A stretch of DNA of 64,000 nt from an uncultured Candidatus Micrarchaeota archaeon (GTDB lineage: Archaea > Micrarchaeota > Micrarchaeia > Anstonellales > Bilamarchaeaceae): contig OY970229.1 in assembly GCA_963714085.1 (NCBI GenBank), positions 384,001 to 448,000 of the forward strand, written 5' to 3'. The translations under genes and the position numbers were made by a program. This document shows, one piece after another, positions 48,867 through 57,316 of this stretch. The first letter of the stretch is position 1. Each line of letters begins with the position of its first letter. The notes beneath the pieces were generated by a model. It had not been told where the DNA came from. It was given only the letters and a program-made list of their open reading frames with translations, and did no database searches.

Positions 48867-49130
48867 TCAGTTCCGCAAGCCTTCCCGCCCGCCGCTTTTC
48901 GCCGCTGTGGCGAATTGCAGGTATACGTCGCGTTCCTTTCTTCTCCCAGGGCCCAGCTCCTCTACGGTCCATGGCCGGTTCAACTTTGCTATCGCGACAT
49001 GGCGGGGGTTCAGGATTTCTTTGGGGGTTTCTTTGGTTCTGCGCCGGCGCTTCGTTTTTGGCTCGGGCGGTCGTCTTTCCGGATGCGCGCTGTTCAGTCT
49101 GTGCAGTGTCCTGAGGTCCCATACCATCAT
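48867..49130 (-). CDS. Small basic hypothetical protein
   Basis: ORF preceded by GGTGA and TTTAAA; exact start among tandem ATGs uncertain. Confidence 0.5.
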   Translation of the reverse strand: MMVWDLRTLHRLNSAHPERRPPEPKTKRRRRTKETPKEILNPRHVAIAKLNRPWTVEELGPGRRKERDVYLQFATAAKSGGREGLRN

Positions 49131-49184
49131 CATCACCTGATAATGCTTTAAAATATTCCCATATTTATATTATCCTGAAAAGAA

Positions 49185-50978: not shown

Positions 50979-52066
50979 TGGAAGAGGAAGGAATATCGTT
51001 CAATGCGCCCGAGGGCGTTTTCTACAACCCCAGGATGAGGTTCTGCCGCTCGTTCGCGTCGCTCGCGGTCGGGGCGCTTCCCGAGAAGGAGCTCGTGGCC
51101 TGCGACGCGTTCTGCGCGTCCGGGATAAGGGGGATACGCTACGCGAAGGAGAACAAGAACATATCCAGGACGATATTCGTGGACATAGGAAAAAGGGAGT
51201 TCCTGGCCGCGAAGGCAAACGCGAAGAAAGCGAAAATAAAATACGAGGCGCTGCATGGGAACGTCTCGCGGCTGGTCTTCGACATCTGCGCGGACTTCCT
51301 GGAGATAGACCCGTTCGGCTCCCCGGCTCCTTATCTATACGACTCTTTCCGCGCCTTCAACCCGCTCAAGCGCGCGTACCTCTCGGTCACGGCGACGGAC
51401 GTCGCGGTCCTCTGCGGCGGGAAGACGAAAGCGTGCCTGAAGAATTACCACAGCGTCCCGCTCAACAACGAGTTCACGCACGAGACCGGCATGCGCATCA
51501 TGATAAAGAAGATCGCGGAGACCGCCGCGGAGTTCAACATGGGCATCGAGCCGCTGGTCTCGCTTTCGAAGGAACACTACCTCAAGACGATAGTCAAGGT
51601 GACGCGCGGGGCCGACCTTGCGCACGAATCGCTCATGAAGCTCGGCTACATCAATTTCTGCCCGGCCTGCGGATGGAGGGGGAGCTCGCAGTTCCCGGAG
51701 AAACGCTGCCCGTCCTGCGCCCCAAAAAGCCTCGCGTTGCGGTTCGCCGGGCCGCTCTGGCTCGGGGAGCTCCATGAGAAGAAGACGCTCTCGCGCATGG
51801 GAGTGCTGAACCGGAAAAGAGGGTACTCGGACAGGGACGAGCTGGAGAAGACGATCTCGAGGATGATCGGTGAGGTCGGCATGCCCCCGTTCTATTACGA
51901 CGTGCACCAGATGTGCAGGCTGCTCGGGAGGGGGAGCGTGCCGAAGATGGACGCCGTGCTCGAAGGGCTGCACAAGAAGGGGAACAGGGCGGTGAGGACG
52001 CATTTCTCCGAGACCGCGATAAAGACCGACGCTGCGCTCAAGGCCGTGAAATCGGTGATCTCATGA
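50975..52066 (+). CDS. trm1: tRNA (guanine-N2,N2)-dimethyltransferase Trm1
   Basis: VFYNPRM, ASGIRGIRY, IDPFGSP, VTATD, CPAC/CPSC, GPLWLG, RTHF. Confidence 0.93.
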   Translation: MMEEEGISFNAPEGVFYNPRMRFCRSFASLAVGALPEKELVACDAFCASGIRGIRYAKENKNISRTIFVDIGKREFLAAKANAKKAKIKYEALHGNVSRLVFDICADFLEIDPFGSPAPYLYDSFRAFNPLKRAYLSVTATDVAVLCGGKTKACLKNYHSVPLNNEFTHETGMRIMIKKIAETAAEFNMGIEPLVSLSKEHYLKTIVKVTRGADLAHESLMKLGYINFCPACGWRGSSQFPEKRCPSCAPKSLALRFAGPLWLGELHEKKTLSRMGVLNRKRGYSDRDELEKTISRMIGEVGMPPFYYDVHQMCRLLGRGSVPKMDAVLEGLHKKGNRAVRTHFSETAIKTDAALKAVKSVIS

Positions 52067-52956
52067 AGACGCTCAAGTTGCTCGCCACGCAGATCGGCGG
52101 CGAGATCGGAGGGGACGTGAAGGAGGCGTTCGCGGACATATCCTATTTCGTCCGCAGGGGGCACAGTGTGTGCGGCGATTCGGCGTTCGTGCACGTGGAC
52201 GACTCGAAGGTGGTCGCGGCGGTGCTGGACGGCGTGAGCGGCGAGGAGGGCGCGGACCACGCGTCTTCGGTGGCCGCTGTGGCGATCGTGAACTATCTCA
52301 GGGGCATTGCGGCGCCGGACAAGGACGATATACAGGACGCGTTCGTGAAAGCGCACATCAACCTCTCCTTCGGGCTCACCACCGTGGTGCTTGCCGTGAT
52401 AATGAAGGATGGGAGGTTCCTGTGCGGCTCGGTGGGCGACTCGATGGCCTATTCGCTCGACACGAAGGGGACCGTGAGGCTGGAGCTGCCGGGGGCCAGG
52501 GTGGTCGGGCCGGGCACGCCGATCCTGCGCTTCCTGATGTACAGGAACGTGGTGCCTGCGGCGCTCGGCATGCAGGGCGGCATGGAGATACTCTTCAAGC
52601 AGGGGGAGCTGAGGCAGGGGGATTCCATCCTGCTAATGAGCGACGGCGTGACGGACAACCTCACCATCTACGTGGAGGATGGCGTGGTGAAGGACTGCGG
52701 CGGCGCCAAGGACCTCGCCCTGATGGTGGAGGGTGCGAAGGACACGAGGTCCGTCGTGAGGCGCATACGGGACGAGGTGGTGAAGAGGATGGAGGAGAGG
52801 TACGACATCCGGGACCCGGACCGTGTGCTGGTCGCCAAAAAGGACGACGTGGCGCTGATAGGCATCAGGTACACCGGAACCGGCATCGTCGGAGCGGGGG
52901 TTGGACGCCCGTCTAAGATTAGACGCGCGTCAAAGAAAAAAAGGAAAGGTTTATAA
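52063..52956 (+). CDS. PP2C/SpoIIE-family Ser/Thr protein phosphatase
   Basis: CGDS, AVLDGVSG, SVGDS, LMSDGVTDNL, DDVALI. ATG 52063 overlaps the trm1 stop. Confidence 0.85.
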   Translation: MKTLKLLATQIGGEIGGDVKEAFADISYFVRRGHSVCGDSAFVHVDDSKVVAAVLDGVSGEEGADHASSVAAVAIVNYLRGIAAPDKDDIQDAFVKAHINLSFGLTTVVLAVIMKDGRFLCGSVGDSMAYSLDTKGTVRLELPGARVVGPGTPILRFLMYRNVVPAALGMQGGMEILFKQGELRQGDSILLMSDGVTDNLTIYVEDGVVKDCGGAKDLALMVEGAKDTRSVVRRIRDEVVKRMEERYDIRDPDRVLVAKKDDVALIGIRYTGTGIVGAGVGRPSKIRRASKKKRKGL

Positions 52957-52957
52957 A
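52944..52957 (+). promoter_or_regulatory. BRE-TATA promoter (GAAAGG-TTTATAAA)
   Basis: Consensus-like archaeal promoter 29 nt before a GC-rich stem; no credible ORF follows. Confidence 0.65.
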
Positions 52958-52978
52958 CGAAAAAATCGCAACTTCTAT

Positions 52979-53345
52979 GTCGGTGCGGGCTGAATGGCCC
53001 TACGGGGCTTAAGAAAACCGCGCCGGCCGTATGACCGTTTTTCGCGGTCACATGAAAAAACTGATGCCGGGCCGGTGGATAACCGGGCGATGCTGGCTTA
53101 GACCCTTTTATCGGGAAAACGCCAAATCGTCTGCTGGAATGGAATTATCCGTCCAAAACCGCTCCGGCTACAGGGAAAAACAAGGCCGAACCGGTGGATA
53201 GTGGGCGAGGCTGGCTTAGACCCTTTTATCGGGAAAACGCCAAGCGTCTGCTGGAATGGAATTATCCGTCCAAAACCGGTTCGGGGATGATTCGAATTCT
53301 GATGGTTTGCATAGGCTTACTGAATGGCTTATCCTGCGATTTTTC
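52979..53345 (+). ncRNA. Putative structured non-coding RNA of unknown family
   Basis: Multiple stems, a C(UACG)G tetraloop, two homologous hairpin domains of about 90 nt, and a terminal T-run. Confidence 0.6.
53072..53279. repeat. Two intergenic direct repeats of about 90 bp (53072-53161, 53191-53279)
   Basis: Shared core GCTGGCTTAGACCCTTTTATCGGGAAAACGCCAA...CGTCTGCTGGAATGGAATTATCCGTCCAAAACCG. Confidence 0.95.
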
Positions 53346-53452
53346 CGGAGTAGCGACACACTAAAACACCGAATGCCATGGAAAATGCGCTGGAAACAAG
53401 CGGGAAGCAGCCGTATCTACGGTATTTAAACATTTCCGATGAAAGCACTCTT

Positions 53453-53884
53453 ATGGGTTCAGAATTGAAAGTAGGAGACATCATGACCAAAAAGGTCGTC
53501 GTCGTCCCTACGGGCTCCGGCCTCCTGGACACCGCCAAGCTGATGAGGAAGAACGAGATAGGTTCCATAATCGTCGTCGAGGGCGCTGAAGGGAAGCGGG
53601 CCAAGGGCATCATCACCGAGAGGGATATCGTTCACAAGGTCATAGCGAAGAACCTCGACCCCTACAGGTCGAAGGTCGATGAGGTTATGTCCAAGCCCCT
53701 CAGGGTGGTCAAGCCGGAGACGACGATCGAAGAAGCCGCGAAAGCGATGAGGGAGAACCGGATAAAGCGGCTCCCCGTCGTGAATGACGATAATGAGTTG
53801 ATAGGCATCATAAGCGAGGGGGACATCATGAAGATATTCCCCATAGTGGTCGACCTCATAGAGGAAAGGGCCACGCTGGGTTGA
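53453..53884 (+). CDS. Stand-alone CBS-pair domain protein
   Basis: KVGDIMT, IGSIIVV, GIITERD, IKRLPVV, GIISEGD. TATA-like TATTTAAA upstream of ATG 53453. Confidence 0.92.
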   Translation: MGSELKVGDIMTKKVVVVPTGSGLLDTAKLMRKNEIGSIIVVEGAEGKRAKGIITERDIVHKVIAKNLDPYRSKVDEVMSKPLRVVKPETTIEEAAKAMRENRIKRLPVVNDDNELIGIISEGDIMKIFPIVVDLIEERATLG

Positions 53885-55531: not shown

Positions 55532-57316
55532 CTACCTGATTTTTTGGGGGATGACCCCGCGCTGGAACTTGTTGGATTCGACGTCATAGGTCACGTTTCT
55601 TATTTTCCCGTTTTTTTCTAAATCGTATGTTGACAGGCTGCTGGGTACGGTCGGCGCGAACAAGTCCGCTCCCCAGACCCTGGAGAGCAGCGCTCCGATG
55701 GATTTCTCGTCTTGCCCGGTCGAGCAGGATTCCAAGATGACGGTCGGCTTATCTACGAAATATTGCTTGACCGCGGCCAGCTTGGGGCCGTCCGTGAGGT
55801 CGAGCGTGTTCTCGTCCCTCAATGGGCTGAGTGGGGGTTTGCCAAGGAGTATCCGATCCGGTGATCCGTGCCCGGCTATCAGCATCGTGTCTATCTTTCC
55901 ATAATCGCCGGACATCTCCTTGATTCTCGCGTAGACCTCCTTATCGGAGTTGACCTCGACTACGACCACGTTGTAATATTTCATGAGGGATTCCAATTGC
56001 CCTCCGACACGGTAAAAGGCGCCGGGCGGATCGCTTTTACTGAAGACGGCGAGCAGCACCGGCTTGCTGTTCGCGACCTTGTTGCTCATGTCCTCGAGCT
56101 GTTTTTTGGAATACCTGCCGAAATACTCTATTCCGAACTTGCGGTTCAGAAGTTTTGTTTTCTCCTCGCCTATCGTGGCTATCCCATAGGCGAAGTTCGC
56201 GCACACCTCCACGCTGGATTTCGGTATGCCGAGCGAGGATGCGAGCTTTTGCGCCTTCGGATAATGGTCTATGTATCTCACAACCAATTCGATGAACTCG
56301 TACGGAGGAGTCGGCGCCTTGCCCGCTGATTCAAGAGGTGCGAACAAGGGGAACGCTTCTTTGGCGTATTCCCTTATCTTCCTGAACGCATCCACCACTG
56401 CCTGCGGATTCTGGAGGAACAGACGCACTATGCCTTTATCCGGCCGGGGATCCTGGAATGCCTTGAAGACATAGCCGGTCAGGCGCGCGGCGCTTTTGGA
56501 GATTTCCACGAACTCGTTCGGGTAGCGGACGAACAATCCGGCAATCTCTGCCAGTTCCTCAAAGGCGTTGGTGGCCCTGTCGCGGGTCCGGATGTCGTCG
56601 CCCCCGGAGGAATGTTTTATTGATTTGAATGAATCGAGCAGAAGCCGCTTGTTTTTGTCAAGCATGGGGCCGAACCGGGTAAGCGCGCCCAGGATGGCTG
56701 GGGTGGCTTCGCCCGCATAGCCGCACATCTCCACGACCGCATCCATGTGCTTGACGAATATTTTCGCTATTACCGGATTGGCGAGGTTCGCGAAGGCCTC
56801 CACCCTCCGCTCGGCTGCCCGGGCGGAGATGGCTTTCTCTTCAGGAAGCATGAACTCTTTCGGGATCGTGGAGATTCCGCCGATGCAATCCGAGATGCGC
56901 CTGAACGCGCCCAATACCGCCTTCGGATCCTTGACGAACGCATCGCCGAGCTCGGTCTTCTCGAGCGCGTCGAACGCCCCGCCGTCTGCACTGTTCCCCC
57001 TGCCGCCTTCCCTCACGTACTCAGCCATTTTCATAAGCGTATTGGCGGTCTGCTCCGGCTTTTCCACGAACGCCTTCGCGATCTTCTCGTTCCTGAGGAC
57101 CTTGAAAGCGAACTCCCATCCGGTGAAGTTTATCGCGTAGTCCTTGTGCTCCTGGGCGTGCTTTCTTATCTTGGCAGCTGCCGCAACGACCTCTTCGAGC
57201 TTTTTCGGGTCTTTTGATTTGACGATGAGGTTGACGACGGTATCCGGAATGCCCTTCCCGAGCCTTTGCTTGACATAAGCGGAATCGAATTCCTGTTTTG
57301 CGACTTGAGAGGCCAT
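55532..57316 (-). CDS. Hypothetical protein: helical repeats plus C-terminal caspase-fold (clan CD)-like domain
   Basis: MLIAGHGSP and VILESCSTG motifs; N-terminal repeated FVxxP helices. Confidence 0.65.
   Translation of the reverse strand: MASQVAKQEFDSAYVKQRLGKGIPDTVVNLIVKSKDPKKLEEVVAAAAKIRKHAQEHKDYAINFTGWEFAFKVLRNEKIAKAFVEKPEQTANTLMKMAEYVREGGRGNSADGGAFDALEKTELGDAFVKDPKAVLGAFRRISDCIGGISTIPKEFMLPEEKAISARAAERRVEAFANLANPVIAKIFVKHMDAVVEMCGYAGEATPAILGALTRFGPMLDKNKRLLLDSFKSIKHSSGGDDIRTRDRATNAFEELAEIAGLFVRYPNEFVEISKSAARLTGYVFKAFQDPRPDKGIVRLFLQNPQAVVDAFRKIREYAKEAFPLFAPLESAGKAPTPPYEFIELVVRYIDHYPKAQKLASSLGIPKSSVEVCANFAYGIATIGEEKTKLLNRKFGIEYFGRYSKKQLEDMSNKVANSKPVLLAVFSKSDPPGAFYRVGGQLESLMKYYNVVVVEVNSDKEVYARIKEMSGDYGKIDTMLIAGHGSPDRILLGKPPLSPLRDENTLDLTDGPKLAAVKQYFVDKPTVILESCSTGQDEKSIGALLSRVWGADLFAPTVPSSLSTYDLEKNGKIRNVTYDVESNKFQRGVIPQKIR

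Follow-up and report, generated by a model that had tools for sequence, protein, structure and literature searches.

Predicted genes for structured RNAs behind a conserved operator in one family of Micrarchaeota

CsrA and RsmA are known from bacteria. As described in PMC2375449, the Csr/Rsm RNAs (CsrB, RsmY and RsmZ) are stand-alone genes with an upstream palindrome, that of GacA, and repeated modules, and they work by protein sequestration. Among archaeal activators, RbkR (PMC5397151) and CopR (PMC7830388) have two adjacent palindromes a few bases upstream of the B recognition element (BRE) and TATA box, and sites in this position are read as activator sites. Here, we analyse a window of 64,000 nt (C1:384001-448000) in a Micrarchaeota genome, G000, which is a single contig (C1) of 1.57 Mb, and in it a predicted RNA gene that is flanked by a PP2C and a CBS-domain gene and situated upstream of dnaG. 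The DnaG protein of G000 has relatives assigned to Micrarchaeota, several of them to Candidatus Bilamarchaeaceae or Bilamarchaeum, so that the family of the genome, f1, is probably Candidatus Bilamarchaeaceae. Further genomes are labelled G### and genera g1, g2, g4, g5, g19 and g23, where g1 is the genus of the window genome and includes G000 and G001; L219 and L221 are metagenome contigs. Like the Csr/Rsm RNAs, the element at this locus is a stand-alone gene with upstream palindromes and repeated modules. Unlike them, it has an archaeal TATA promoter, its modules are ~100-nt three-way junctions instead of short hairpins, and it has no Rfam match, so that the likeness is one of analogy only. 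Like the RbkR and CopR sites, its two palindromes are adjacent and just ahead of BRE/TATA; unlike the RbkR motifs, they have a different consensus and their target is an RNA gene. Our sequence analysis argues for a real, undescribed family of structured RNA genes with its own operator in Micrarchaeota. Each would be an independent gene, mostly at one locus per genome and within one family, made up of the operator, a TATA box, a three-way-junction RNA and a U-rich end. We consider it very likely that the element is a structured RNA gene and is transcribed.

The original prediction, which was made from the letters of the window alone, described a promoter-led RNA with two tandem repeats, and most of its parts are found in place (Table 1). 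These include the BRE-TATA module, the 10-bp stem enclosing a UNCG-type tetraloop hairpin, the small hairpin that follows, the T-run at the end and the TATA-like box of the next gene. The two repeats were also recovered, with closing stems that differ as described and a spacing of 117-120; they are longer (103 and 99 nt) than the ~90 nt proposed. Their fold has to be redrawn. Instead of a long interrupted hairpin, each repeat is predicted to form a three-way junction, as the innermost helix proposed earlier (53077-53081/53146-53150) has its fourth pair broken in 10 of 12 homologous units, while the alternative helix P1b holds, its last pair being present in 12 of 12. The P2 tip is the best-conserved part of the unit. 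The loop of P3 has two G's in all 12 class A units (defined below); in unit 1 it can be read either as a tetraloop of GNRA type (53141-53144) or as a T-loop-like motif of 7 nt. The region as a whole is more stable than 100 of 100 dinucleotide shuffles (z = -3.79), and domain 0 together with the next hairpin reaches z -5.4; 53285-53345 has no stable fold (z = 0.01). The start of the RNA was placed by the TATA-to-start distance in archaea, as given in PMC6316755, and a G is present at TATA+30 in 16 of 26 operator loci. A 56-amino-acid reading frame (53031-53201) is shifted by single-base indels in G001 and L219, and a small protein-coding gene was rejected.

The domain 0 stem shows a compensatory change in L219, and the small hairpin, found in L219 and L221, shows compensatory changes between G000 and G001. 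Domain 0 is probably a collapsed copy of the repeat unit, because it keeps the outer stem and bulge of the unit and its counterpart in L221 matches weakly as a whole unit (E 0.021). Therefore, the array probably comprised three units, one of which decayed. In G001 (L003:1270-1500), a ~105-nt unit, present twice in tandem, took the place of the RNA tail. Related copies lie at seven further places in G001 and at none in G000 or G002; it looks like a small dispersed mobile repeat.

Two RNA types lie behind the same operator: class A, the type at the window locus, and class B, a second and longer type. For class A, BLAST among 61 genomes gave one syntenic homologue, 80% identical. With covariance models of the repeat unit (R1 first and R2 after it), it was detected in 7 of the 99 genomes of the f1 sample, with two units in G000 and G001 and one in G003, G036, G025, G006 and G027, the last of which was outside the training set and was recovered at E 2e-6. 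Four metagenome contigs were reached via the PP2C protein, two of them ending in or near the RNA start, and class A units occur in two contigs, L219 with two and L221 with one plus a degenerate one. Thus, the two repeated domains of the original prediction hold for genus g1; beyond it, the five other class A genomes and L221 have one intact unit. In a MAFFT alignment of eight units, two-sided changes occur in 14 of 29 pairs, and slid controls pair 22-49% versus 86%. When 12 units were fitted to the model, two-sided changes occurred in 17 of 29 pairs with 89% of cells paired. In each case 0 of 500 shuffles scored as high, counts that overstate significance because related genomes are not independent. 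Fold stability exceeds that of shuffles for 11 of the 12 units (z -1.5 to -3.4), and the + strand is the more stable in 10. The pattern of conserved loops and varying stems that had been noted applies to the outer stem only; the tip loop differs among genomes and is the same between copies inside one genome. Together with the absence of an Rfam match, the conserved promoter geometry and the single copy, the covariation bears out the proposal of an archaeal RNA under structural selection. The class A model detected nothing outside f1 in 151 genomes of the order except a coding-region match (E 0.048), and nothing in 150 other genomes of the phylum. Relaxed searches of 5 + 5 RNA-negative genomes gave a best E of 0.9. 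In L221 (2913-3010), a tRNA-like gene, apparently with one or two short introns by eye, follows 250 nt after the RNA.

Single units begin ~30 nt past a TATA box, have a T-rich run at their end and adjoin unrelated, often convergent genes, which argues that the RNA is a gene in its own right rather than a leader. In G003, G036 and G027 the closing stem is followed by T-runs, and in G006 and G025 by a T-rich stretch; a scan for bacterial promoters and terminators, which does not cover archaeal signals, gave no match. A cis leader or tandem riboswitch for the CBS gene or dnaG would fit the order in G000, G001 and L219, where the RNA precedes CBS-dnaG on the same strand, and tandem aptamers are known. 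Three-way-junction riboswitches (purine, c-di-GMP-I, TPP) presumably resemble the unit in size, in the long arm with internal loops and in the short GNRA- or T-loop-like hairpin. Unlike these and tandem riboswitches, the RNA has no Rfam match, no conserved downstream gene, and its own promoter and terminator. The CBS gene has a TATA-like box of its own and is not a conserved neighbour, as other genomes carry different ones: the next gene is convergent in g2 and g4, neighbours vary in g19, and L221 has no CBS gene there. Gene context largely refutes a cis leader, to which we give scarcely any credence. Because the downstream neighbours differ and are often convergent, we regard the RNA as a stand-alone gene.

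A DNA element is also extremely unlikely. The region could be a miniature inverted-repeat transposable element (MITE), a repetitive extragenic palindromic (REP)-like, a dif-like or an origin site, with the palindromes as recombinase or initiator sites; a 13-nt inverted repeat flanks it in G000, and G001 and G073 have insertions at the locus. Many dispersed copies would be expected under the MITE/REP reading, and G000 has a single locus by BLAST, covariance model and hidden Markov model, as do nearly all other carriers. The 5' arm of the inverted repeat is promoter-downstream sequence common to many loci, and the repeat was not seen by eye around single-unit loci. In addition, 10 of 12 units show a preference for one strand in their G-U pairs and folding, blastn against phages and plasmids gave no match, and viral contigs contain 0 exact matches to one 19-base stretch. 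The locus is mid-replichore, at 437 kb versus skew extremes at 34 kb and 846 kb, and a dif or origin site was rejected.

The conserved double palindrome (52901-52934) was overlooked by the original prediction. A pattern made from five loci was found in 26 of the 176 genomes of the order that were searched, all in f1 and at one place each, and its reversed control in 0. A TATA box stands behind the operator in 26 of 26 loci, 15 nt away in 25 and 17 in one, and a non-coding stretch follows. As an independent check, 13 of 14 RNA loci found by the models and missed by the pattern carry a site 57-62 nt upstream that scores 14-26, compared with a downstream maximum of 8.0; this check left out six further class B matches, and G073 was seen separately, with one palindrome. 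The operator is also present in 4 of 4 metagenome contigs. At some loci it varies, with one palindrome, a 1-nt spacer or three palindromes, and in G002 operator and TATA box precede a different sequence, which is truncated where the contig ends. The double site of G000 has a score of 39.6, compared with -1.8 for the next best, and single sites at other places do not leave the range seen in shuffled genomes. Because it lies just upstream of BRE, where archaeal activators reportedly bind, we infer that the operator is an activator site, and it appears to head only this gene in G000. The last PP2C codons overlap the operator and TATA box, and the stop codon overlaps the TATA box; in genus g1, the basic C-terminal tail of PP2C is conserved as a by-product of the embedded operator/TATA (52901-52957).

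Table 1. Features at the window locus (positions in the window)
Feature	Position	Strand	Description	Basis or remark
Upstream gene, PP2C-family phosphatase	52063..52956	+	Outside the RNA gene	Pfam PP2C_2 E 4e-13; end of open reading frame
Operator palindrome 1	52901..52916		16 bp; two 6-bp half-sites, 4-bp variable centre	Second-best matrix site in G000
Operator palindrome 2	52919..52934		16 bp; ends 15 nt before TATA	Best matrix site in G000
BRE	52944-52949	+		
TATA box	52950-52957	+		TATA column counts over 26 loci (the box helped orient those loci)
Predicted non-coding RNA	52979..53344	+	~365 nt	Start inferred 29-30 nt past first TATA base
Domain 0	52979..53027	+	10-bp stem (52979-52988/53018-53027), purine-rich internal loop, UNCG-type hairpin (52996-53009)	
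Small hairpin, then A-rich linker	53032..53050	+		Only genus g1 and L221
Unit 1	53066..53168	+	Three-way junction, 103 nt	Model R2, 101 bits
Unit 1 P1a	53066-53075/53159-53168	+	Outer stem, then 3-nt bulge	
Unit 1 P1b	53076-53080/53151-53155	+	Inner stem	
Unit 1 P2	53084-53133	+	Long arm	
Unit 1 P2 tip	53094..53124	+	Stem, 5x5 internal loop, three C-G pairs, variable cap	Invariant columns
Unit 1 P3	53136-53150	+	Short hairpin	Three outer pairs kept in 10-12 of 12 units
Unit 2	53186..53284	+	Same three-way junction, 99 nt; other outer stem (53186-53194/53276-53284)	Model R2, 94 bits
Variable tail	53285..53339	+		Replaced by dispersed repeat in G001
T5 run	53340..53344	+	Probable terminator	
TATA-like box of CBS gene	53423-53432	+	Separate promoter	
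Leaderless CBS-domain gene	53453-53884	+	ATG 53453	Pfam CBS E 1e-32

Class B RNAs lie behind the operator in g19 and g23. They are longer (model length 188) and are predicted to form a three-way junction with a long tipped arm; in 19 sequences, 21 of 38 pairs covary (93% paired). Their model, R3, matches 35 of the 99 f1 genomes (34 of 40 in g19), once in 32 of the 35 and twice in three, and among 151 genomes of the class it matched g19 only. Class A and class B share the operator-TATA module, the layout, a weakly similar tip and a YjbQ gene, which lies 1.2-4.4 kb away in 13 of 21 loci, both g1 genomes included. The two RNA bodies are likely homologous. The RNA body appears to diverge past model detection while the operator stays conserved, and the operator may help to locate versions of the RNA that have diverged beyond the reach of any model. 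A ppsA tree, quickly made and unrooted, covers the 30 genomes with the best scores out of 90; in it, starred branches separate the carriers of class A from those of class B, and RNA-negative genera fall among the class A carriers, with loss and divergence not separable and the genomes incomplete.

In the three two-unit loci, nine variable columns sort by genome and four by copy, and of the latter the outer stem contains three. This sorting suggests that the duplication took place before G000 and L219 separated, that the cores were homogenised and that the closing stems stayed distinct. In G093 the tip arm alone is duplicated inside the RNA, independently of the whole-unit duplication in g1. 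These repeated, independent duplications are the main reason to regard the tip-bearing part as a binding module. In G073 (L121; G073:C81:4052-7426), the class B promoter and 5' part are duplicated around a two-gene pair beside ppsA, and the second gene of the pair resembles ParE under the cut-off (E 5e-4). The class B RNA gene may be an insertion site there.

As to how the gene would work, we propose that a dimeric DNA-binding protein binds the palindromes upstream of BRE and switches the promoter on under some condition, the RNA gene appearing to be the only strong target of that regulator. The RNA would then act in trans by its shape: a protein, or a complex of proteins, would bind at the P2 tip and be titrated or scaffolded by the RNA. 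Titration of a protein is the mechanism that we tentatively favour. Tandem duplication of the unit (g1) or of the tip arm (G093) would raise the number of binding sites per transcript; the copies are homogenised in each genome, and their differing outer stems would let each unit keep to its own fold. The logic would be like that of the bacterial Csr/Rsm sponge RNAs with a dedicated activator, without being one of them. The dedicated upstream palindromic activator site of those systems has a counterpart here, whose position would make it an activating one; their many GGA-loop hairpins do not, as there is one per class A unit and none in class B. In sum, this possible archaeal circuit of one regulator and one RNA, to which we give somewhat less than even weight, comprises a dedicated activator and a modular RNA, evolving fast, which would either titrate or scaffold a protein or else self-assemble, its valency tuned by tandem duplication.

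Several observations weigh against this proposal. Six regulator candidates failed, and our searches found no regulator or partner protein. Neither RNA class is seen in 57 of the 99 f1 genomes, G025 has the RNA without the operator, and the G027 unit is not better than shuffles (z 0.41). Models R2 and R3 do not detect each other's RNAs. In addition, the shared tip is weakly similar: 5 of 31 sequences scored, at 1.4-4.8 bits, with shuffled maxima of 3.0 and 3.9. Because the models fail to cross-detect and the tip similarity is weak, a single binding module shared by the two classes is a tentative proposal. In class B, the RNA has a T-run of at least five behind it at some loci only, and the homogenisation of tandem copies can be neutral gene conversion.

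Alternatively, the RNA might act without a protein, through tertiary or unit-to-unit contacts (the P3 loop docking into the P2 internal loop of its own or a neighbouring unit), as dimers or oligomers, or by binding a small molecule or ion in trans. Two G's of the P3 loop and two C's of the tip are kept in 12 of 12 class A units, though the second C has its helix partner in only 10 of 12; tandem copies would permit an intramolecular dimer, and natural RNA-only multimers exist, according to bioRxiv 10.1101/2024.12.08.627333. We regard this as unlikely, as the P3 loops of class B are highly variable and have no G pair, inspection by eye showed no covariation of the P3 loop with the tip, and most genomes carry one unit. 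A base-pairing small RNA under a dedicated activator, with its C-rich tip on G-rich ribosome-binding sites of mRNAs, is improbable. Class B tips do have pyrimidine and C runs, ppsA is preceded by G-rich leaders in these genomes, and dedicated activator-sRNA pairs are common in bacteria. Against it, the C run pairs with a G run in the fold in 16-19 of 19, the cap loop varies freely with no conserved single-stranded seed, and the best other match in G000 has E 0.56. The conserved letters cluster in stems and short loops, stretches not long enough to pair as antisense RNA, and G000 contains no long complement of the RNA. A tip-profile search for rRNA mimicry in the rest of G000 gave nothing better than E 1.9, and rRNA mimicry was rejected. 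A small self-cleaving or otherwise catalytic RNA, whose tandem units would yield unit-length RNAs, is very improbable: the ~100-nt size, three-way junction and A-rich linkers recall what we take to be features of small ribozyme arrays, but no Rfam ribozyme matches even at E 5 over the element or E 1 over the homologous loci, few unpaired bases are invariant, and self-processing would be needless for stand-alone single units that have a promoter and terminator of their own.

The RNA failed every family test that we ran. Rfam 15, the check first suggested for it, gave no match over the element at E<=5, none at the gathering threshold in the window and none over the RNAs of nine homologous loci at E<=1. 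In line with the original prediction, which saw no signatures of these RNAs, it is not a signal recognition particle (SRP) RNA, RNase P RNA, 5S rRNA or tRNA: G000 encodes the first three elsewhere (RF01857, C1:1058059-1058319, E 2e-15; RF00373, C1:519253-519473, over the cut-off; RF00001, C1:1358980-1359094), and ARAGORN found 0 tRNA or tmRNA genes in the window. Like it, the archaeal SRP, RNase P and 5S RNAs are single-copy structured genes with their own TATA promoter; unlike them, it is patchy and has an operator. The SRP RNA of G000 is under the Rfam cut-off (68 vs 96.5 bits), and its RNase P RNA is short, at 221 nt.

Y RNAs, which are bound by Ro60 and induced by stress, are ~100-190 nt long, with paired ends in a long bulged stem, a U-rich end and an inducible promoter. 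The RNAs analysed here are like them in size, long bulged end stem, U-rich end and, as predicted, an inducible promoter. The Ro60 (TROVE) gene was not found in 5 of 5 carrier genomes searched, which are 88-92% complete, and control rings were found in 2 of 14. With no Rfam match and no RNA-repair genes among recurring neighbours, a Y RNA was rejected. A box H/ACA guide was rejected as well, as an ACA follows unit 1 in G000, G001 and L219 and follows neither unit 2 nor the single units of g2, g4 and g5; no tandem G-A motif (K-turn) was seen by eye in the tip, and Cbf5 was not searched for. Within ~10 kb of 21 loci, recurring neighbours include no nuclease or toxin gene, and an omega RNA or type III antitoxin was rejected. 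OLE, ROOL, GOLLD and raiA are comparable in having a conserved structure, no established function and a discovery by comparative genomics; unlike them, the window RNA is smaller, modular and archaeal, without a sequence or model match. Our literature search found no description of the RNA or operator, which motif-discovery supplements and subscription papers may list; in the main text of PMC12892359, the terms non-coding, ncRNA and small RNA occur 0 times. Regulatory RNAs are not a known feature of reduced DPANN genomes, and 42 of the 99 f1 genomes appear to keep one behind a conserved operator. If this is true, no stand-alone family of regulatory RNAs would have been described in DPANN archaea before it, as far as our literature search went, and if the RNA is a protein sponge, it would be an archaeal counterpart of a known bacterial logic. 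The RNA unit is a small, foldable target.

The rejected regulator candidates are as follows. RbkR has a different consensus, and none of the top 30 operator sites in G000 is at rib genes. Among five genomes searched, DtxR is not over the cut-off in G000 and is present in one RNA-negative genome. A Csa3-like CARF-winged helix-turn-helix (wHTH) protein is scattered over 15 of 99 genomes, and an 87-amino-acid wHTH protein, in 91 of 99, is not discriminating. The Lrp gene beside glnA near class B loci has a best operator score of 1.6 in its promoters, and a TrmB-type carbon regulon was rejected with an operator-like site before ppsA in 1 of 30 genomes, G000.

Near these candidates, we observed the following. 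The ppsA site in G000 (C1:64032-64047) is an operator-like palindrome with a score of 16 directly before the ppsA TATA box, and was not seen in the 29 other ppsA promoters. In g19 and g23 (L223-L239), 10 genomes have an Lrp/AsnC gene, divergent from glnA, at a distance of 3.4-6.3 kb from the RNA gene, and the promoter of this Lrp/AsnC gene has a different recurring motif, probably its own site. G000 has two ribbon-helix-helix matches and ~15 scattered proteins of 320-337 amino acids with an N-terminal Lrp/AsnC-type helix-turn-helix (HTH), an apparent family expansion. An island at C1:1273600-1290500 encodes a Csa3-like CARF-wHTH regulator (TIGR01884, over the cut-off), along with a possible metallo-beta-lactamase-fold nuclease, an AbiE-like pair and an integrase-like gene; apart from Csa3, these names were read off the sequences. 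In the window, two genes on the - strand stand apart from the locus: an 89-amino-acid open reading frame (48867-49136), divergent from an HTH-CBS gene and without a Pfam match, and a 594-amino-acid protein (55532-57316) whose sole match is a weak one to DUF4347 near the C-terminus.
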